The notes under the pieces are model-generated. The model did no database searches and had not been told where the DNA came from. It saw only the letters and a program-made list of their open reading frames with translations. This document shows, piece after piece, positions 1 to 64,000 of a stretch of 64,000 nt of DNA; position 1 is the stretch's first letter, and each line of letters opens with the position of its first letter. The position numbers and the translations under genes are program-made. Source of the DNA: Yuukianura sp. NJ FZ-2021 (taxonomy: Eukaryota); NCBI GenBank assembly GCA_046563655.1, contig CM102288.1, forward strand, positions 3,720,001-3,784,000. Reading direction: 5' to 3'.

Positions 1-3000
1 TTGAGAAGTTGCGTGTTCAAAGGAAGTCAGCTTTAATCTAAACTTTTTTTTAATTACAATTTCCATCAATCGCTAACTTTTTTTTACCTTAACCAATTCC
101 TTTTTCTAGAATTTTTCAAATCAAAAATAATGCAAGAGAGAGTCAACTTTAATACAAAAGAAAATCTAATTGCAACTTTTAAGAAAAAGAAAATGAATAA
201 GTGAGTGAAAGTGTTTTCTTCTTTGCATTTACTTTCTCCCCGCCCGCATTGCGCTAGTAATAAACAATAAAATTTTGTATGTCATAAACTCTTTTTTTCG
301 AAATTAAATATTCACGGGATGCCTCTATTATTTTTGCTTTCTTTTTTTCGAAATCGGTTTTATTCAAATTTTGTGCTCCCGGTGCGGCTTTCTTTCTTCC
401 CACTTTTGTTTTGTTTTGAAAATTGATTTTTTCGCTTCAAAGTCTTTTGAATTTGGTGGTTTGTGGGAAAGTGGAAGTGGCTGACTGTCATGCCTGAAAG
501 TGAAAGCAGGCTGCTGCTGGAGACAGAAGCTACTGAATCTTTGTGATACGGAGTTATCTGTCACTCAACTTCTGCATCATCTGCTTCTTCATAACAGGAC
601 ACTTGTGGACGGCCTCTCATGGACGATTGTACGTCCATGCAATTACCTGTCCATTAGTTCCCGCCCGTAGTAGACTAGATTGCTGGCTTGCACTTGACTA
701 ACTTCCTTTGCTCTCTGAAAGTTTTTTGAGAAAAAACGGGATCCGTATTTTCTTCGGCTGTCAATTCTCTTCAAATTGCACAAGACACGCAGCACGATCT
801 TCTTCTAACGCAAAACAACCAACTGCAAAGAAATCGAAACAAAAAGGTCAACAAAATGAGCTAAAGAACTATGCTAAACAAATGATGGAGAATGATTTTT
901 TTTTGTGTTGCTGGTATTACTGTTGCTTCTTTTGTTGTGGACCAACCGTCTCTCCTACTGTTTAGTTTTTCTTTCATCTCTTTCTAACTTGGAAGATGAA
1001 GATCCGCGATCTCCATGTTCTGCTTGTCTTGGCTCCACATGCTGAGTATCTGTTGCACTTTCTCCAGTCTTTCTCCCATAAAACTCTCTTCACGCTTCGT
1101 AGTTTCTTCAACAACACACTTTTATGATTTTGGCAACAAAAAAGATAAAAAAAAACAGCAGAGTCTCATCTGGGTCCAAAACTGAATCACTGGAGAAAGC
1201 AAGAGAAAGTTCCACTTTTCCAAAAAGTCTAAAAACTTATCTTTTTTATTCTCTTTGTCGTAAATACACTAATCCAATTATTATTTCTTTCTCTCCTCGA
1301 CTTTGCTTTTGCTTTCTTTTTTACCAAGAACCACTTTGGCACTAGTCCCACTTATTCTCTTCATAACTTAACAAAAATTCTGCACCTTACTGAGTTTAAA
1401 GGAAAAAAGCACTTTCCTCTCTCACCGTCTCCAAATCATAATTCATAATTAGAAAAAATGGAAAGCTTTTAGCCACACTTGCCTCTCTAGACATTACCCA
1501 GCTTGTTTTCTCTTCTTAAAAGAACAAAGAAGGTCAAAGAGAAAAATGTGAAAGGTCAAAGTTGAAGTCTAAATGAGTTTTGGCCCTCTGTTTCGGACAG
1601 GACTTGAGTAATTGTCTATTTTGATGACATGTCGACCTCTTTTGTGAGTCTTAAAACATGTTTTGTTTGAGAATTCTATTGTTGTTCCGACATCCAATTT
1701 TGGGGGACTCGAATTCTCCTTTAAACTACACCGACAAAAAATATTGGAGCATAAAAAAGGAGGAGAAAGTGGAACTAAAATGGTTGTTTTAGTTTTCTCC
1801 TAGTGTAAGATTTTTGTTTGAATTTGGCGGGAGAAAGTGTATTCGGATTCTGAAATCTGAAATCCAATTGGATTTGGTTTCTGTCTCGTTTTTCTATTTT
1901 CACAATTGAAGGTAAAGGAAAAGGTTTGCAGATTTCCATATGTACAGGAACAGAATACAGTCTTCCTTGGGGAATTTAGAGAGCGAGATGAAACAACATA
2001 CTTTTCCTATTTGGATCAATCTAACATCAACCAAACGTAACATCAACATAGCTTGAAAGTTAGGCTGGGTTGATGGAAATCGTTCGTGACATGCGTACGT
2101 GAATCTCGGAGAAAAGAGAAACTAAATTGGCCAACTTAGGACAACAAACAGCTTCCCGCTCAAAATTGGCCACGTTCAGGTTCAGTTCCTTTGAACCTGA
2201 AATTCGCAAATTTCGTCTCTGATTGTGATTATGTGCAAAAAAGGAAGAAGCTTTTACATTTCTCTGCCAACTGAAATTTCTGGTTTCTAAAAAGTGACGC
2301 TCTGTAGACACGAAAGATACTTCAAGTTCCTGCTCCTTTGTTTTTGTTACATAATTGCAGTCAACTGCTTTCTTCTTTCGAAAAGAAAAAAGAAGTTTTT
2401 AAAGTAATTTCATAGTTTCCGCTCCAAAAACTTTCTCTCGAAATAAAACTTTCCCTTTGATTCATTTGCCTTTCACTCTTATCCCTTATCCTCACCCTCT
2501 CTTGTTAGTTTCTCATATTTTCACTTTCTCCAAGTCTCTTTGTCTTCTCCAAAACAAATTTCACCAAAGAAAGTAACAATTGTTCCAGTCCAAATCCCTT
2601 ACAGGCAATTCGAATCAAGGCTCCCTCTTGTAAGGGCTCACCACTGCATAAGCTTACCAGGGACTTAAGGGCCTCGATCCATCAAAAACAAGCGATTCCC
2701 CAACACTCCTCCAGTCACATTCTTATGGTTAAGTTGGCGTTTTAAACAAAACAAAAAGGATTAGACTATGCGTTTTTTAAAAAACGTGAATTTTTTTTTT
2801 GAAGTGAAAGAAGATGAAGCTGGTGGATGGTCTGAAATGGTTCATTTGTTTCAGATGAATTCTGTCTGGAGAGGCATTTTGGGTGTGTGGAATGATGTGG
2901 AAAATGGCCTCATTCTCCACTAAGACATAATTCACCAAATCCTTACTCCCATTCCACCACCCATTTTCCTATCTTCAACCACTATTTTATCTTAACGTCT

Positions 3001-3716
3001 CAGCCGTACTTCAACCACCATGTTTTCAGTTTTTGCTCAAAACGTACAACGTTACTTGTCCTGCTGCGCTGCAACTGCTTCAAAATCCAAGTTCAAAGAG
3101 AAAGTTACATGAGAATCCTTGCTTCATGTTTTCAGAAAAAGTGGAAACTCGAGGCTTTGCTTTTCGGTAGAATTTTTGTAGGCGAAAATCGATTCTAATT
3201 AGTACTTCTAATCTCGAGGTAGTATATGGTTTCAAAATATCAAAAATTTCGCACTTTCGAAACCCCGAAATTTTTAGCTAATTTGAAAGAGTGCTGTTTT
3301 GAAACCTCGAACTAATTTTTGATCCTAGGTTTTTGGTCTTTTTGAAAAGGGAATGAATGTGCCAAGCCTTTCTGTTCTAATCCACACTAATCCAATCTTC
3401 AAAGGAATCCACAGCAGACATTTGTTAATTCCCAATTACTTTCTCTTTTTAGGCCAAAACCAGCAGCCATCATGCGCAATTTAAGCAACTAAAAGGTCAC
3501 TGACCTCTGACCTCCTCTCGCAAGATTCTCCAAGATTCTGCTTATAAATTGGGATCATCAAGACGGGAATTGGTTCTGCCTGGGCCGTGGGACTGGGTCC
3601 CTGCTGGAGCAATGTCTTGTGGTGGTGGTGGGGCTTAGAAGTGGGGCGGATCAATATTTTTCGGTGGGGCCAAGCCCACTTTCTCTCTGTTTCCAGTTGA
3701 AATTGGATTTGAGTGA

Positions 3717-20300: not shown

Positions 20301-23300
20301 TCAATTTTTGTGGTTTCCTTTGTATTTCAAAATTCAAAAACTTTTGTAATAAAAAAAAACTCGGGATAATTTGAGTGCTGAGCGCTATCTGGAGAATTCA
20401 AATCTACTAGACTTAGAAAAGATCAAAGCTTTTCCAGCACGTTTTATTTTCTTTTTCGAACTTTTTGTTTTCAAAAAACTTGATCTTGATGTAAAAATTC
20501 TGAGAACATGAGGAAGGTGATGGTGGTTGGTGTTTGAATTAAGGTGGAAGATCCAGGAGGAAAACTTTCACAATTCGATGCTAATTACGAAACTTTCTTT
20601 GTTTTATTTACATTTCCCGCCTTTCCGAAAAACTCAAGCCCAAACAAACTCAAATATGAGAAAAGTTTGTACCAACTGCCGCGCTTTTCTAGCACAAAAT
20701 TTCTACTCACACTTCCACTAAAACTCTGCTACTTAAAATCCTACAACTTCTAAGCCTTTTGTTTCATTTCTTAGCAACAACATCCCACAATCGCCCACCT
20801 AAACCTGACTTACGACTTTCACTTTTTACGCTAGAAAAGTTCAAATTAAGTACTAAATTTTTTTGGTCAACATCCTACTTCCCTTAATCCTTACACAGCT
20901 TCATAATCCCAGAATACAGCCTAATTTCAAAATTTATTTGCTTTTACCAAAAAACATTTTTTTTTGCTTTTTGAAAAACATAAAAACGTTGAAATAGTAA
21001 GGTTAACATATTACGGTTGTTACAACAGAGTTTATACTGAGTCCCAAGGGAACGCTGGAGCAGCCCCATTGGTGTTTGAGTGGATCGAGCGCTTCCAGCG
21101 TCTCTAGCGCTGCACATCGCTTAGCCAAAATTACACGCTCCAGCCATAATTTAGCGTGGATCTTCCTTTTGATCTCTTGGGTACTGTCATGGCGGCCAAA
21201 AATAAAGATTTTGCAGAATTTGGCGCGCAAAGTCAAAATTTCTGGAGAGTTCCGGCTACTGTGCCCTGCGGAAGCGAAAGTTTCCTGAGGGACTCTCACT
21301 GCTGATGCTCAGGAATTATCAGTTCAGGCACATTTAGCCTTGAGGAGAGAAGGGAGTTGACCCCCACCTCAAAGAAAGTGGGTGCGGGGCTTTTAAGAAG
21401 TGGAATTTGAGCGTACTTTCTCTTTTGAAGTGACTTTCACTCTTAATGGTAAACATTTTAGCTCTGTGGGAAGCTTTTTGGCTAATTTGGGTTAAAGCGA
21501 AAGTTCTTCGTGGGACATTTGAGAACTTCAAATCAAATATTGATAAGTCCACTTTCAGAAGGAGATAGAAGGAATGCTCAAGTTTAGTTTTTTTAGGTTA
21601 AGGTTAGGTTTTATAGATTAGGTGAGGTTTACTTTTATGTTATTAGGTTAGGGTGGTCCGTTTTAGGTTCTGGACGGGAGTCCAATAGCCAAGTTGCCTG
21701 TGGTGAGTATCCAATGATTGAAGTGAATGATTGATGATGATGGGTTGAAAAGGAAAACACGCCAATCTGGTCTAGCCAATTTCGCCGCTGCCAAAAGCAC
21801 AATGTCTTCCAACCTTCTCACCTTCTTACAAAAAAAAATCCATAACAGTTTTCAAAAATTGGAAAAAAAAAATCCTTTCAAAATCTCCTCGCAATTTTTT
21901 TTTCCAATTTCATTTTGGCCCAAATGAAAAATCGTTGAATTTTGTATTCTCTGCATACGTTTTTGAGGTATTCAGAAAACTAAAAGCCTTGCTTCTCCGG
22001 AAAAAAATTCAAATTTTGCAAAGTCTTCATTTCCATCATAACAGGATTTGTCTATTTAAAATAATTTAAGCCCCTCCAACAAAAACCTGAATACAAATCT
22101 CCCGTCTTGCTCTTTAAGCATCTTTATCCAGCAGCAGAAGAGGCTTAGAGTTGACAGCCGAAATAATGACAGCCTTCTTGTTATGCTCCTCTTGTACTTT
22201 TTTGAAAAATACTCGAAAAAATATTTTCAGAAAAACTTGTTCAGAAGACTCAAGCTTCAGTTCTCAGAAACCCATTTTTAGCAAAAATTTTTAACTCAAA
22301 CAAGGAAGAAAAAGAGTGAAAGAAAGTTTCATGTTTTTTGTTTTTTTTTTCATTTTGAATTCTGCATAACTTTTAAGGTTTCAGGAAGTGAAAGTTCAGC
22401 TAGTGAAGTTTTGTTTCGAATTTTTGAGAGATAAGTATAGAACAAGCCTAAATTTTGAAAAATTAGACACATTTCAAATTATTTTTTGTTTAAAACGTTC
22501 ATTTTTCGTGTCCACTGATGCAAATTGGGATAATTTGAGACTTGAGTATGATAAATTGTGAGTTGTGGAGAATAATGGTAGTACTTGTTCTTGTGGGTTC
22601 TTAAGGAAGATAATGAATGAGGATGCTTTCTCCGCCTACTTTCACTTTCGTGCCCAAATGAGCCCAAAGTCCCAACTACTAAAAGAAAACTAAAGTTTTT
22701 TAGACAGACAAGAAAAATTGAAACTTTTTTGTAGTCACTGGAGCCTTTCTGCCCCAGAAAACGTGTTCTCTGTTGCCTTCTGCTCGAAATGAGCCAAAAT
22801 TCGGTCGAAGTAACCCTGGGCTCCCCGCCTGTACCCACCCGTCCAAATTTTCGCGCTGCTCTGATGCGAAAATTTGAGCAAGTGGGTACAGACAGTCCAA
22901 GTTTACTTCAACCCAGAAATCTTTTTAAAAAAGTAGACTGGGAGCATTAGACCATAAAGTAATGCCGATTCTGCAATTCTTTTAGGTTGGTTTTTATGTT
23001 GAAAGTAAGAAAGGCTAAATCCGGACGGAAAGTATTTTTTACAACATGTTTTTTGAGTAAACTGAGCTACTTTCACCAAACGACTTGATTGATGTTTTGT
23101 GATTTGACGGCAACTGATGGATCACTTTATTTCAACTTGCTTCCGTTTGCACAAATAAAAACAGCACAAAACCTTGCAAAAAAAAGTCCGAAAATTTTAC
23201 GAATCCAACACTTTTCGAAAGAAAGAAACTTGATCAAAGTGAAAATTGTTATTGGAGAAATCGAACTTTGCTAAATATCTTGCAAGTTGCGAAAATTGAT

Positions 23301-35901: not shown

Positions 35902-36882
35902 TTAAAAGTAGGTGAGTGGGTAATGGGAGTCAAAAGCATCAGCGATAACGGCGTCAATGTCTTGGGTCAGAGGTTGTTGACCTTGGGGTTGATTTTGAAA
36001 TCCACGGAAGTGATTGGGTGATGACTTGTGCTGGTGGCTGCTGATTGGTCGCTGAGTTTGAGGTGCCGCGGTAGGTCGTAGGTCCCAGTTCTGATAATTG
36101 TCATCGAGGCGACGATGGCCTTGACCTTGCTGAGGTTGGTGCTGCTGTGGATTTTGAAATTGCGCAGTCTGATGTTGGTTATTTCTAAATTGGTGTGCCT
36201 GATGCTGCTGATTTTGAAATTGGTGTGCCTGGTGTTGCTGATTTTGAAACTGTTGAGGTTGGCGTTGCTGATTTTGAGATTGCTGTGCCTGATGTTGCTG
36301 ATTTTGAAACTGTTGAGGTTGGCGTTGCTGATTTTGAAATTGCTGTGCCTGATGTTGCTGATTTTGAGAATGTTGATGTTGGTGCTGCTGATTTTGAAAT
36401 TGGTGTGTTTGTTGCTGATTTTGAAATTGTTGAGGTTGGCGCTGCTGATTTTGAAATTGGTGTGTCTGGTGCTGCTGATTTTGAAATTGGTGTGTCTGGT
36501 GCTGCTGATTTTGAGGTCGGTGTGCCTGGTGCTGTTGCTGATTTTGAGTTTGAGAGATTGGCTGTTGCTGAAATTGCCTGATTTCCCTTTGAACTGGCGG
36601 AAATTGAGCTTGGTGTTGTCCAGGATTGTTCCAGAAGGCCTTACCCAGACCAGAAACTACAATAGCGGATTAATTGAATGTTTTGAATAAGAATTAAAAA
36701 TTTTAATTAAGAATTTTTTAATTCCATTTTAATTAATGACTCTCACCGGCCGGATTTTCTCCTTGTTGCCGCTGATTTTGACCTTGACTAACAAACTCTT
36801 CTCCAGCGTTTCTCAAATGTTCAAGGCCATTGACCCCTGAAAGTAAAGTGACCACGATGACCCCAATAATTATAGTTTCCAT
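35902..36882 (-). CDS. Secreted Gln/His-rich tandem-repeat protein, ~296 aa, 2 exons
   Basis: Exon 1 (36882-36747) reads METIIIGVIVVTLLSGVNG-LEHLR..., a signal-peptide-like start. A phase-1 GT-AG intron (36746-36657) follows. Exon 2 (36656-35902) is open throughout and ends ...DAFDSHYPLTYF-TAA. It carries about 13 copies of QNQQHQxxQF / QNQQRQPQQF. Confidence 0.8.
36135..36546. repeat. Coding 30-bp tandem repeat, ~13 copies
   Basis: A unit like gctgattttgaaattggtgtgcctggtgtt recurs every 30 nt (one unit is 27 nt) and encodes the Q/H decapeptide on the minus strand. Confidence 0.9.
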
Positions 36883-43399: not shown

Positions 43400-43544
43400 C
43401 GTCATTGTACCCACCCAGCAGCGTACCAACTCCGGGCAACTTTTGTGGCTACAAAATGCTACCTAAAGTGGTAAAATAAGTTGCCACATAGTGTAGCCAC
43501 CCATTGCAGCCGCAAAGTGACTACACTGTGTGGCTACAATGACG
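43400..43544. mobile_element. Putative MITE/foldback element (~145 bp) with 15-bp terminal inverted repeats
   Basis: Left end cgtcattgtacccac versus the reverse complement of the right end (gtggctacaatgacg -> cgtcattgtagccac): 14/15 identical. Internal GTAGCCAC-like motifs alternate in orientation. TTAA lies 4 nt outside each TIR. Confidence 0.5.
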
Positions 43545-54372: not shown

Positions 54373-57300
54373 TTATGATTTCCGTTTGGGAGTTGTCCTA
54401 GGTGAGAGATTTCCGGCAGCCATGGTGGGTAGTGTAGAACTCTTGAGTTTCGTTGACGCTGGAACTGGAGCTGCAACAGAAGCGTTGTTCAGGAGAAACG
54501 GCCTAAACTTTCCGACCCGATTTGACCGAAAGTGGAGTCGCTGAATGAGACTGCCCAGCGGTTTGTCGGGATAAAGTGTTTTCAAAATTCCTTCCAGGAG
54601 GACAAGCAGGAGCCGACGATTGAGGACACGGTTTTGACAAAGGTCAAAGACGCAAAGGAGGCCACGGCGCGTCGTTTCACTTCCAATGACATGCTTCAAC
54701 TCATCTGAAAAAAATGGTGGGATTCTCAACTAGTACTTAGTAGAATATAACATAACATTTTCGCAACATGATTTCACTTACCTGAAAGTGAAGAAAGTAA
54801 AGCCGCTTTGGCGCCAATTCTTGTGCGAAATTTTGTTTCTGAGTCTCTCGGTTTCGCAGGAGTAATCGGTTGACCTCCAGGCCAAAGTGTATGCCTAAGG
54901 TCACGTCAAAGTCACCATTTTACAAAATCAAGTCACAAGTTCAAGTTCTAGTTAAAATTTTTACTTACTGAAGGTGTTTCAGGTATCCAGAGACACGGAC
55001 AGGACTTGTAAGTAGCGCAACGTAGTCGACAATCCGTCGATTGAGGTTATCTCCCATCATGGTTTTGACGATTTGTCTAATCAGGACAACAATTCGTCTA
55101 CGGAGCCACTGATTTCTGGATTTGAGGTCAAACACTTCATCTATCAGCAACAGAATAATTCTCAGAGGAATGTTGTCTACGGTCTAAAAAAAATCACAAT
55201 ACGAATTAAAAACTTGGACTACTTTTCTAAATTCTAAAAATAGCGTGTTACCTCAGAGTCCAGCGATGCTCCGACTTTCAGCGCTTCGCTGAAATCTACA
55301 GAAGTGCTCTTGGAGTTGAAAATTTTCGTCACAGCAGTATCCACCGTATTGAAAAGTGTGTCCGGCATGGCTTTGACAGCATGTGTCACAGTTTTTACGG
55401 ATTGCCTCAACGGGTTTACCGTCATGTTGACAAAAGAGTCAATCTACAAGTAACAAAGTAATCATGAAAATGATTAACCAATTAGGTAATAGTAACTAAC
55501 ACTCACCTTGTCACTAAACTGTCTTCGTCGATTGACATAAGGTCGCGGCTCCAGAAAATGGAGTAAGCTGTCTTGCAAAGAGGCTCCGAAGCACTAAAAA
55601 GAAAAACGTCACGAAAACGTTTAGTTATGCCAAAATATATGATTTTTCCAAAATTCTTACCGGTTCATTTGTTGTGATGAGAATACTTTCCAAATACTTG
55701 TTCAGTGAAATCATTCGTTTTTCCAAAAATGCTCTATCAGTTTTTCCGAATGTCTGTTTACTCGGAAACTCCAATTTGCTCAGTCTCATCCACTTTGCTT
55801 TTATCCACTGATGAAAGTCATAGAAATCCGAATATCGTCGATAGATATGCCACTCCTTCTCCAGCCCTCCATGCTCCTCCCTCTTCGTCGCCTGAATCAC
55901 ATACACTCCAAACGTACTTCCCTTCTCAGCTGTCAGTGCAACTTCAATTATCTCAGCTCTCAAGCGATAAGTTCTCTCCCACGTCGTTTTTTCCCACACT
56001 CGTAAATCCTCTCCAGCCAACCCCTCTTCTTGACTCTTGATTTTGAGACATTCACGACATGTCGTAAATTCATCAGTCATTAATCTTGAATTGGCATCGA
56101 AACTACTCTTCTTCCGCTTTGAATCCAACACATCTCCAGTCCTGTCGACATGAATGATGTCTTCGTCATCTTCTTCATCTGAAGCTGAACTTTGACTATG
56201 AGCTGACACTGTTTCGGCTTTGAGAAGATCCAGTTCCATAAGGCACTTGATGAAAAGTTTATTTCGAGTAAATGCTGGGTAGAACTTGTCAGTAGTTTGA
56301 AGCGTTTCGATGAGAGCTTCTTGGATTTGGTCAAAAAGCCCTGCCGTGATTGGTTCTGTACGGACTTGAACGTAGAACTTTTTGACAACTTGTTCTGGTA
56401 GTTTTACTCTTGGGGAGGACTGTAAAGAAATGAATGTCATCAGTAACAACATCTTTTGAAACAAAGACGAAAAGTGGAAGTTAATTTTTCTTTACCTTGT
56501 CTGATAGAAATTTTTCATAAACATTGAAAGCAGCATCCTAAGAGAACAAAATCGTTGCTGAAAATATTTGGAACGTTTTGAAATTCAACCAAGTACTTAC
56601 CCGCATGCAGTCGAGCATCTCTTGGTGATTTTTCGTTTGATCTTTCCCATGTTTTGGAGTTCGATTACTCTGGTCAATTGCTTCCAACTGCTGCTCAGCA
56701 GAAACCCTCCAAGCTTAGTTCAATAACAAAGTTAATCGATTAATCATAAGTATGAGATCGGTTTTGTTATTGAATACATACCGTCAGCGTTGAGGTACAT
56801 GATTAAATAGTGATTTGAACCTATTGAAGACATGAAGTCCATAAAGTAAGAAAGCGCAATACTGTTCTTGAGTACTTCTCTGTTAGAAAAAAAAATAGAG
56901 TTAAGTAAATTGAATTAACATGAGATGCTGTTAAGTTTAATTACTCCAGTGGAAGTGTTTGTAGTTTGAGTCCAGGTTGCATAAAGTAAGCTTGCCACTC
57001 ATCTCCATCCGTATCGTCTATCCAGTCTCTCGATTTCCCTTCCTTGACAACGCTCAGCTGATGCTCAATTCTTTTCCGAACAGAAGCCAAGGATTTGAGC
57101 TGTTGTCTAATTGCGCTGATCTCATCGGAGTTAGATGTTTGTTCCAGGGCCTTTTTCTAAGAAAGAACGAAAACACATACAAAGATTGTAATAAACCCAA
57201 AGTTAAGATACAAATCTTGCGTTACTAGATCCGCCACTTGCTGGTTGCAAAATCCTTGGGCAGCAAACAGTTCGTCAATCGAATCACTCGTGCTGATAAC

Positions 57301-62172: not shown

Positions 62173-64000
62173 ATGGACGCCGCCAATAAAAGTCAGGCAT
62201 TTGCAGATGCACTGGCCCGAGCTCGTCAGGTACTTAACTTAACTTACTAACGTAATAGATGAGTAGTTAAGCCAAGTATTTAATGCTAATTAGTTTCTTG
62301 TCTAAATAGCTGGCAGCAAAACTTGGAGCATCGAATCCAAATGGAGCTGTGGGAGGATCGGCCACAAGTCCCGGGCAAGGTGGAGGGTCAGTTGTGACTG
62401 GAGTGAAACGAGGATTTGATGACTACCAGTCTCCGGGTAAAACGGCCTTGAAAAATACGTATTTACTACGTTCGGAAGTAAATTCCTTGAGGCCGAAGTC
62501 TTTTACTTCGGTCTCCATGTTGCTTCCAATAAAAAATTCCTAACGGGATGCGGAGGATTCGCTAACACCATTTTCGTATAAATGGAGTTTGATAGTAGAC
62601 CTCCGCACAGTCAATTCATATCTGTAACTCTATCTCTAATCTACATTGCTATTTCCTAATTGATAATTGATCACTCTTTACAGAAAGAGATGTGAAGAGA
62701 TTGGCCGGAAATGCAGCTTTATCTGACCCCTTCGGAGCTCAGCTTGCTGCGATGAAGGGAGTTGTTGGAGGTGGGAATATCAGCATGTCCGGTATGGGAA
62801 TCAAGACTGGCTTAGGAATCAGTGGAAGCGGAAAAGCATGTACCGAAGAGATTAGAATTCCAGACCCTCTCGTTGGGCTCAGTAAGAAACCCATCAATCA
62901 ATCATTTAAGTTAAACATGAATTGATTCTGACTGATTTTTATTAATTAGTAATCGGTCGTGGAGGAGAACAGATTAACAGGATTCAAAACGAAGCAGGCT
63001 GTAAAGTTCAGTTAGCTCCGGACACTGGGTCAGGTCAGGACAGACCATGTCACCTTCAAGGAACCAAGGAAGCTATCGAGTAAGTTACCTCGCTCTTACT
63101 TTGGCATTGTAAGTTGCCCATATAAAGCCAGGAGACTCCATGATTTATTGGAGATCAACTATGGAACTTGGGCAGAAATAAACCTGTCAGACTTTTTACT
63201 GCCGTCTACGAGTTGCATTCTCTTACGATGGAATCAAAGTCTTACACATTCTACTTTTCTACTGCAAATGAAGAAATGAATTGACATGAACTAATTAATC
63301 TGATGTGTAAAAGTTAATCTAATGATTAACTATTGTTGTGCTTTTTAGGAGAGCTAAGGAGATGGTGATGGAGATTGTGAGTTCGAAGAGTCATGAGATT
63401 GGGTCGAGTGGTCGTGGACCCCCAAAAGGTCCCCCTACTGGAACTCCCCAAGGGCAGGTACAGGTATTGTGACCACAGATTCAAAATACAGCTTAAGACC
63501 TTGACCTTCGCCTTATCGGGGTAACTTGAGACATTTTTGACGTAAATAGGTGGAGTTGATGATACCTGGGTCAAAAGTAGGATTGATTATCGGTAAAGGA
63601 GGAGAAACGATACGGAATTTACAAGACAAGTCCGGCACGAAGATGTTCATTCTGCAGGAAAACATGTTCGAGGAGTGTGACAAGCCGCTACGGATCGTCG
63701 GAGAGCCGGATCTCGTCGAAGTAACGATCCATTAGTCGGTCCGCTTGGACTCCCTTTAGTGTTTCTCTCTTTTGGTTTTCAGCATGCTCGTCAATTGGTT
63801 TTGGAATTAATTAGTGAGAGTCCAATGAAACAAGACTATGGAAAAGGAAAGAGCGAATATGGAGGTGGGGGGTTCGTCGGCGGCCCTGGAACGCAGACAA
63901 TGAAGTTTCCAGTTCCCAAAGTGTCTGTTGGTTTGATCATTGGCAAGGGCGGAGACATGATCAAGAGGATCCAGGTATCTTTAACATTAAGTTGACTAAT
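62173..64000 (+). CDS. FUBP1: Far upstream element-binding protein (FUBP/KHSRP; Drosophila Psi-like), KH domains; runs off the window end
   Basis: AFADALARARQ|LAAKL N-terminal box; KH1 IRIPDPLVGLIIGRGGEQI, KH2 LMIPGSKVGLIIGKGGETI, KH3 VPKVSVGLIIGKGGDMIK. Exons 62173-62229, 62310-62436, 62684-62881, 62950-63079, 63349-~63462, 63550-63720 and 63783-63974. Confidence 0.9.
62472..62612 (+). ncRNA. Intronic box H/ACA snoRNA 1 (FUBP/Psi intron 62437-62683)
   Basis: Hairpin 1: ggaagtaa/ttgcttcc with an 11-bp upper stem. ANANNA H box at ~62529-62536. Hairpin 2: gcggagg/cctccgc. ACA at 62607-62609. The 3' pocket (ttcgcta / tagtaga) is complementary to LSU rRNA UCUACUA-UC-UAGCGAA at the canonical 14-nt distance. 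Confidence 0.85.
63113..63251 (+). ncRNA. Intronic box H/ACA snoRNA 2 (FUBP/Psi intron 63080-63348)
   Basis: Hairpin 1: tgccca/tgggca. H box aaataa at 63176-63181. Hairpin 2: agacttt/aaagtct with a ccgtc/gatgg upper stem. ACA at 63246-63248. The 3' pocket (tactg / aatcaa) is complementary to LSU rRNA UUGAUU-UU-CAGUA at 14-nt spacing. Confidence 0.8.

Follow-up and report, generated by a model that had tools for sequence, protein, structure and literature searches.

The window analysed here, a stretch of 64,000 nucleotides (nt) from the genome of Yuukianura sp. NJ FZ-2021 (assembly GCA_046563655.1, contig CM102288.1, positions 3,720,001 to 3,784,000 of the forward strand), contains, in the second intron of a FUBP/KHSRP-like gene, an element of about 141 nt (62472-62612, plus strand; all coordinates are those of the window) that we regard, with high confidence, as the gene of an intron-encoded box H/ACA small nucleolar RNA (snoRNA), orthologous to human SNORA62 (E2), yeast snR82 and nematode ceN58. 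The original prediction for this place was an intron-encoded H/ACA snoRNA, and it is supported by the stability of the fold (z-score), the matches to Rfam families, the covariation of the stems, the complementarity to the large-subunit (LSU) ribosomal RNA (rRNA) and the synteny with a homologue in a mite. The element appears to be real but ordinary, in other words, another member of a known snoRNA kind.

Structure of the predicted snoRNA

Read from its 5' end, the element consists of a 5' hairpin (62474-62527), a hinge of 22 nt (62528-62549), a 3' hairpin (62550-62606) and an ACA box (62607-62609), which is followed by the 3-nt tail GTC (62610-62612). The hinge is opened by the H box AUAAAA (62529-62534), which fits the pattern ANANNA and is in register with the boxes of the AUAACA type that the homologues have in our alignment A1. 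The ends of the RNA were placed from the 5' hairpin and from the ACA box plus 3 nt. The order of hairpin, H-box hinge, hairpin and ACA, a feature of the class, is thus found here in full, as originally predicted for 62472-62612; the letters, the boxes and the computed fold all bear it out, and on re-reading every coordinate and letter that had been given for the pocket strands and for the ACA box proved correct.

In the minimum free energy (MFE) structure, the 5' hairpin is composed of a lower stem (62474-62481 / 62520-62527) and an upper stem of 11 base pairs (62489-62499 / 62505-62515), which enclose a small pocket of 7+4 nt with the strands ATTCCTT (62482-62488) and CATG (62516-62519). The lower stem of the 3' hairpin, GCGGAGG (62550-62556) / CCTCCGC (62600-62606), is placed around the second pocket and the upper stem; the strands of this pocket are TTCGCTA (62558-62564) on the 5' side and the segment 62591-62599 on the 3' side.

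The MFE fold comprises both hairpins and has an energy of -52.7 kcal/mol, as against -30.1 +/- 3.4 for dinucleotide shuffles (z -6.73; 0 of 200 shuffles were as good), while the opposite strand folds more weakly (z -3.61). These values bear on the simplest of the alternative explanations, namely that there is no RNA gene here, and that an unusually long intron happens to contain chance hairpins. What speaks for it is that the RNA is known here from sequence alone, no sequencing run with RNA being listed for the 141-nt snoRNA stretch. We give this explanation next to no probability, as it would have to account not only for the fold, but also for an Rfam match with an expectation value (E) of 5.6e-4 over the whole window, for a complete set of Watson-Crick pairs (14 of 14) with an rRNA site known to be modified, at a distance from the ACA box that is canonical, and for a syntenic homologue in a mite.

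Target of the 3' pocket in the LSU rRNA

The reverse complements of the two strands of the 3' pocket, TAGCGAA and TCTACTA, define the target UCUACUA-UC-UAGCGAA, matched exactly over 7+7 positions. In the first of two possible registers, TTCGCTA pairs with UAGCGAA and TAGTAGA (62593-62599) with UCUACUA; all 7+7 pairs are of the Watson-Crick type, U and C are left unpaired, and T62593 is located 14 nt before the ACA box, exactly as the original prediction had it. In the second register (9+5 pairs), GATAGTAGA (62591-62599) pairs with UCUACUAUC, only TTCGC of the 5' strand is used, the next U and A are left unpaired, and the distance from the ACA box is 16 nt. The arrangement of pocket strands around an unpaired UN dinucleotide 14-16 nt upstream of the box, also a feature of the class, is found in both registers.

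A search with a 22-mer of the target returned at least 19 contigs, which lie inside prokaryote assemblies, and all six that were scanned with Rfam proved to be eukaryotic LSU rRNA; in one of them (L045), the site corresponds to about position 2355 of the Rfam LSU model, which has 3401 positions. In all 19 ribosomal DNA (rDNA) loci among the matches listed, there is a single site for each of the two registers. For a wider scan, stand-in rRNA contigs for the small subunit (SSU), 5.8S and LSU were found in one assembly via two standard rDNA primer patterns, and even at looser settings the matches of the 3' pocket free of G-U pairs in the stand-in SSU, 5.8S and LSU occurred only at this LSU site. 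As to the nature of these sequences, the contigs L039-L061 are eukaryotic rDNA (LSU, SSU, 5.8S and one 5S) inside assemblies labelled as bacteria or bacterial metagenome-assembled genomes, that is, contaminating eukaryotic DNA. A 16-mer of the target gave eight loci in viral contigs, none of them with an Rfam match, and these were rejected as chance occurrences and not rDNA.

A review table gives the pseudouridines (psi) psi1110, psi2349 and psi2351 of the 25S rRNA as the sites guided by yeast snR82 (PMC5699541). Human SNORA62, according to a study of sponge snoRNAs (PMC4515611), guides psi3830 and psi3832 of the 28S rRNA, its target having stayed conserved between sponges and human, while the 3' loop of snR82 is described as a dual guide, acting via two alternative pairings (Jady et al., PMC8763049). 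Judging from the pairing, register 1, which leaves the first U of AUCUAG unpaired, should be the equivalent of yeast psi2349 and human psi3830, and register 2, which exposes the second U, as in the canonical configuration for this U, should be the equivalent of psi2351 and psi3832. The former is the U2349-equivalent site (snR82) that had been predicted, and the assignment is supported by the 3' guide of the SNORA62 / snR82 / ceN58 group and by the entry in the above table. Since the neighbouring U can likewise be accommodated by this 3' pocket (9+5 pairs at 16 nt from the ACA box), the pocket is probably a dual guide for both Us; a dual psi-N-psi guide for this LSU segment would then have an example in a probably springtail-like hexapod too.

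Rfam families and homologous loci

The whole 64-kb window, on both strands, and a 501-nt stretch around the element were scanned with 4227 Rfam families. No family reached its gathering score anywhere in the 64-kb window. The two best matches of the whole window, which are also the sole ones below E 0.03, both lie exactly on the snoRNA: the nematode H/ACA family ceN58 (38.8 bits, gathering score 60; E 5.6e-4 for the whole window and 4.4e-6 on the 501 nt), aligned over 62496-62612, and SNORA62/SNORA6 (32.2 bits, gathering score 80; E 0.028 and 2.2e-4, respectively), aligned over 62471-62612. A check of this covariance-model type had been suggested together with the prediction, and all the sub-threshold matches that it produced on the element belong to H/ACA families whose 3' guide the element shares. 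In each of the two alignments, the guide strands, UUCGCUAACACC and GGAGUUUGAUAGUA, agree with the family consensus; most of the agreement falls in and around the 3' pocket (UUCGCUAACACC ... GGAGUUUGAUAGUA), and the 5' hairpin is aligned only as a structure. SNORA62 and snR82 belong to one Rfam clan (CL00040), and the snR82 model has no separate row for the window, as overlapping matches within one clan are merged under the best of them, which is SNORA62.

Homologous loci were searched for with a pattern made of both guide strands, a 24-base exact motif taken from the window's own guide. It was found in 30 metagenome loci (33 instances) and in none of the viral contigs; within the 64-kb window the guide motif occurs only once, even when up to two mismatches are allowed. 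In 28 of the 33 instances an ACA follows 9 nt after GATAGTA, which is the offset seen in the window; the five exceptions are L018 and L021, which are identical and lack an ACA in the tail that was searched, L029, also without an ACA, and L022 and L024, where the distance is 8 and 6 nt, respectively. When homologues were scanned with Rfam, 12 of the 15 loci matched SNORA62, ceN58 or snR82 at E <= 0.01, with L025 exceeding the SNORA62 gathering score (88.6 vs 80 bits) and L009 matching snR82 (40.6 bits), and no match was obtained for L024, L026 and L029.

Covariation was counted, on the canonical H/ACA structure, in an alignment (A2) of the window with 23 distinct 3' hairpins (24 sequences in total). 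Pairing was found in 83.9% of the cells, as compared with 65.1 +/- 1.7% in shuffles, none of 500 of which reached the observed value, and with 32-47% after the partners had been slid by 1-3 columns, and both sides had changed in 77 cells against 27.4 expected. Compensatory changes occur in all seven pairs of the lower stem and in four of the five variable pairs of the upper stem of the 3' hairpin. A consensus structure by RNAalifold in which the two guide strands are paired together was rejected: these columns are invariant by construction and display no covariation, and the pocket of an H/ACA RNA stays open.

Some of the homologous loci are of a more complex organization. In L027 (731-1237, plus strand) and L012 (92-386, minus strand), the snoRNA is present in two or three diverged copies, arranged head to tail at distances of 42-84 nt; this resembles a cluster or a single intron with several snoRNAs, and would be unusual for animals. 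Sub-threshold matches to box C/D families (SNORD58, SNORD53/92, snoZ157) were observed beside the H/ACA homologues in L016 (380-454 and 1172-1246, minus strand), L032 (20-102, minus strand) and L020 (127-211, plus strand), suggesting multi-snoRNA host genes in these organisms.

Host gene and synteny

Pfam-type domain matches place KH_1 domains in the exons flanking the snoRNA intron and characterize the host gene as FUBP/KHSRP-like. One host exon has its closest solved relatives in far upstream element-binding protein 2 (KHSRP; E 2.1e-21) and in FUBP1, and exons 1 and 2 align with an annotated FUBP1-like protein of a mite at its N-terminus. Exon 2 (62310-62436, plus strand), matched by residues 14-45 of the mite FUBP1-like protein P0121 in a tblastn search, encodes LAAKLGAS...GFDDYQSP in an open frame and is followed by a GT donor at 62437; exon 3 (62684-62881, plus strand) was read from the sequence as an open frame. 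The intron between them, intron 2 (62437-62683, plus strand), has the originally predicted length of 247 nt and GT..AG borders, and is of phase 1, the reading frame running from 62436 to 62684. Between the 5' splice site and the start of the snoRNA there are 35 nt, and between its end and the 3' splice site 71 nt.

The introns of the host, as delimited by eye, measure 80, 247, 68, 269, ~83 and ~62 nt in order, two of them being long. The further claim that the introns without a snoRNA are of ~60-90 nt holds for those of 80, 68, ~83 and ~62 nt; intron 4 (63080-63348) is of 269 nt. Intron 2 is three times as long as its neighbours because it carries the snoRNA.

Intron 4 (plus strand) deserves a few words of its own. 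At approximately 63114-63250 it contains a second H/ACA-like candidate, with the layout hairpin - AAAUAA - hairpin - ACA. Its fold is weak (z -1.67), the Rfam scan gave no H/ACA match for it, and the pocket of its second hairpin could form 8+8 pairs, including one mismatch and three G-U pairs, with the LSU stand-in at 'uuuugauuUUcagug...'. This candidate may be a second intronic pseudouridylation guide. At 63263-63336 (plus strand) there is also a sub-threshold box C/D-like match to SNORD57 (22.6 bits, gathering score 47; E 0.018 on 301 nt), which has a variant C box and a terminal D box not clearly seen by eye, and is probably due to chance.

Among the homologous loci, the one most informative as to synteny is L026. 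Its protein is 100% identical over 139 residues to a FUBP1-like protein of the mite Dermatophagoides pteronyssinus, which confirms the exon junctions of L026. Intron 1 is situated at the identical place, after ...ARQ, in L026 and in the window, and in both of them the snoRNA (L026:786-938, minus strand) resides in intron 2 of phase 1; the positions of intron 2 are ~4-7 codons apart, in a linker of low conservation. The two snoRNAs differ in each of their four stems, the pairing of which is kept. The shared second intron together with the compensatory changes in the stems therefore argues for selection over a very long time.

The 800-nt flanks of 17 representative loci were scanned with Pfam for exons on the snoRNA strand. 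In L025, two SNORA62-type copies (442-580 and 912-1058, minus strand) lie on either side of a KH exon, the product of which has an identity of 89% with the FUBP protein of Solemya and of 76-82% with those of oysters, so this contig is bivalve-like. In L027, the three copies mentioned above (731-1237, plus strand) are upstream of a FUBP_C exon. The snoRNA of L036 (715-859, plus strand) is found among exons of GAPDH (Gp_dh_C matches on three flanking open reading frames), and therefore the FUBP host is not universal. No Pfam match was detected in the 800-nt flanks of the remaining 13 of the 17 loci. In total, a host could be recognised in five cases, the window being counted, and in four of these it is of the FUBP type, which suggests an old host-gene link in protostomes. 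As known hosts of SNORA62, PMC4515611 names RPSA in human and FAU in sponges; we found no literature on FUBP-type genes as hosts of this snoRNA in a search that left many older snoRNA catalogues outside.

Taken together with the established biology of intronic snoRNAs, these data allow us to propose the following course of events. The snoRNA would be transcribed as part of the pre-mRNA of its FUBP-like host, released from the spliced intron and trimmed by exonucleases to a length of ~140 nt, so that it would extend from the bottom of the 5' hairpin to the third nucleotide past the ACA box. It would then be assembled with dyskerin/Cbf5, Nop10, Nhp2 and Gar1 into a ribonucleoprotein (RNP), the two-hairpin form of which should need the 5' hairpin. 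As read from its letters, the 3' pocket is complementary to the universally conserved LSU segment UCUACUAUCUAGCGAA, and the unpaired U, the first or the second one of AUCUAG depending on the register, would be isomerised.

The 5' pocket and alternative explanations

The original prediction had left the 5' pocket (attcctt / catg) without an assigned target and had considered it as possibly an orphan guide, and this view is borne out, as no target above background was found in the stand-in rRNAs. The scan covered the stand-in rRNAs of the contaminant contigs (positions 1-1831 of the SSU model, 5.8S, and positions 1-644 and 464-3401 of the LSU); an LSU gap of ~89 nt in the assembly G001 (between L041 and L058; L043 covers that LSU part), expansion segments, small nuclear RNAs (snRNAs) and the rRNA of the species itself lay outside it. 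Nor was a convincing rRNA target obtained with the 5' pocket of the mite homologue or with those of three further homologues. The strands of the mite orthologue's 5' pocket, AAUUUACCA and AAGCUAA, are different from those of the window, which indicates that this pocket is not conserved; as regards the 5' hairpin, only its layout is common with the mite orthologue, and stem covariation has been shown by alignment for the 3' hairpin alone. Given this difference, the 5' pocket is probably structural, or else a guide for a lineage-specific site.

Several points weigh against the assignment of the element to the SNORA62 / snR82 / ceN58 group with an LSU target. First, its scores are below the Rfam gathering scores (32.2 vs 80 for SNORA62 and 38.8 vs 60 for ceN58). 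Second, the target was seen in stand-in eukaryotic rDNA, itself fetched with the target motif, and not in the 28S rRNA of the species. Third, the invariance of the guide in our alignments is a matter of construction, so that the independent evidence is provided by the stems, the spacing of the ACA box and the Rfam consensus. Fourth, register 2 leaves two guide nucleotides unpaired on each side of the junction and is thus less canonical. Finally, the 5' pocket has no target: the first scan of the stand-ins yielded four weak, G-U-rich matches, where shuffles averaged 2.1 and reached at most 9, and the scan with 16 junction variants yielded four matches at a background mean of 7.05, with 88 of 100 shuffles giving as many.

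Some of these points could be explained by assuming that the element is a decaying or unexpressed pseudo-snoRNA, which has kept the look of an H/ACA RNA and neither accumulates nor guides. In addition to the low family scores and to the short 5' pocket, which has no target and is not conserved, the long 22-nt hinge, with its 13-nt insertion relative to the SNORA62 consensus, would fit such a state. On the other hand, both boxes, the four stems and 14 of the 14 guide pairs are intact; the element has the sense orientation, occupies the same second intron as the mite orthologue and carries compensatory stem changes; there is no other copy of the guide motif in the 64-kb window (with up to two mismatches) that might act as the working gene; and no A-rich tail or other sign of retroposition is seen. 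We therefore consider a pseudo-snoRNA unlikely, and a functional snoRNA gene remains our preferred interpretation.

Even for a functional H/ACA RNA, the main job might be something other than pseudouridylation of the LSU, for instance, that of a Cajal-body RNA acting on snRNAs, or of a guide acting on some other RNA via the 5' pocket. The lack of a target for this pocket in the stand-in rRNAs is consistent with such a role, with snRNAs, expansion segments and mRNAs having been outside the scan. The consensus of the Cajal-body (CAB) box is of the UGAG type, and the terminal loops CUUUU and UUCGUAU, inspected by eye, contain no box of this type. Moreover, the part of the molecule that is conserved across phyla is precisely the 3' guide against the LSU rRNA, and the 5' pocket differs between the window and the mite. 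A principal role away from the LSU is for these reasons very unlikely in our opinion, and we retain the reading of the element as a guide for the LSU rRNA.

A broader proposal can be put forward tentatively, and we hold it to be possible but rather doubtful: that the link of the SNORA62-type snoRNA to a FUBP/KHSRP-type host is ancestral to protostomes, being no local accident, and that, separately, the non-conserved 5' pocket guides a lineage-specific site in an expansion segment, an snRNA or an mRNA. If the ancient link were real, a gene of an RNA-binding regulator and a ribosome-modifying RNA would have been co-expressed for more than half a billion years, which would hint at their functional coupling. 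What our analysis adds in any event is a confidently placed H/ACA snoRNA in the annotation of a hexapod genome. The general knowledge of snoRNAs is unchanged by it, and the recurrence of a FUBP-type host in distant protostomes is a point for specialists.

Other features of the window

At 55625-56491 (minus strand), an exon is found that belongs to a sorting nexin 13-like gene; its best match is a protein of the springtail Orchesella dallaii (52% identity), the next named matches being mostly from insects (~30-40% identity). Judged by these matches, the window is from a hexapod, probably one of a springtail lineage. A long open frame at 35902-36669 (minus strand) consists of near-perfect Q/H/N-rich repeats (QNQQHQ... 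units) and is open in several frames of both strands, that is, it represents a low-complexity repeat. Two weak, sub-threshold matches to microRNA precursors, mir-4796 at 22820-22903 (minus strand; 29.7 bits, gathering score 90) and mir-5681 at 43487-43541 (minus strand; 26.1 vs 88), are most likely chance hairpins.

Comparison with known systems

Human SNORA62 (E2) / SNORA6 (RF00091) is, like the element of the window, a two-hairpin, intron-encoded H/ACA RNA with the 3' strands UUCGCUAACACC and GGAGUUUGAUAGUA. In contrast, its 5' hairpin and 5' pocket are unrelated in sequence to those of the window, the hinge of the window is 13 nt longer, and the host in human is RPSA (according to PMC4515611), whereas it is FUBP-like in the window. 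The nematode ceN58 (RF01645) is the best-scoring Rfam family of the window. Across the guide, the two 3' hairpins align at nearly every base, while the 5' hairpin aligns poorly and the match begins only at 62496; as to the target of ceN58, a literature search under that name returned unrelated papers only.

The closest invertebrate parallel is SNORA62 of sponges, encoded in introns of FAU (Suberites). According to PMC4515611, its transcription was verified experimentally, and its guide and boxes are conserved, as in the window. The host gene differs, and that paper stresses the movement of the snoRNA between hosts, whereas the type found in the window resides in FUBP-like genes of several protostome contigs.

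The two registers offered by the 3' pocket of the window are the same two by which the 3' loop of yeast snR82 (RF01261) is described to guide psi2349 and psi2351. The snR82 model is 270 positions long, and snR82 is additionally listed as the guide of psi1110 (PMC5699541), while for the 5' pocket of the window no target was found in the stand-in rRNAs. A parallel to snR82 is described also for the archaeal RNA sR-h45 of Haloferax volcanii, the 3' hairpin of which governs psi1940 and psi1942 of the 23S rRNA by alternative pairings (PMC8763049). By analogy with this description, to which our likening of the two systems is confined, the sites of sR-h45 would be homologous to the eukaryotic pair of pseudouridines that the snoRNA of the window is predicted to guide.

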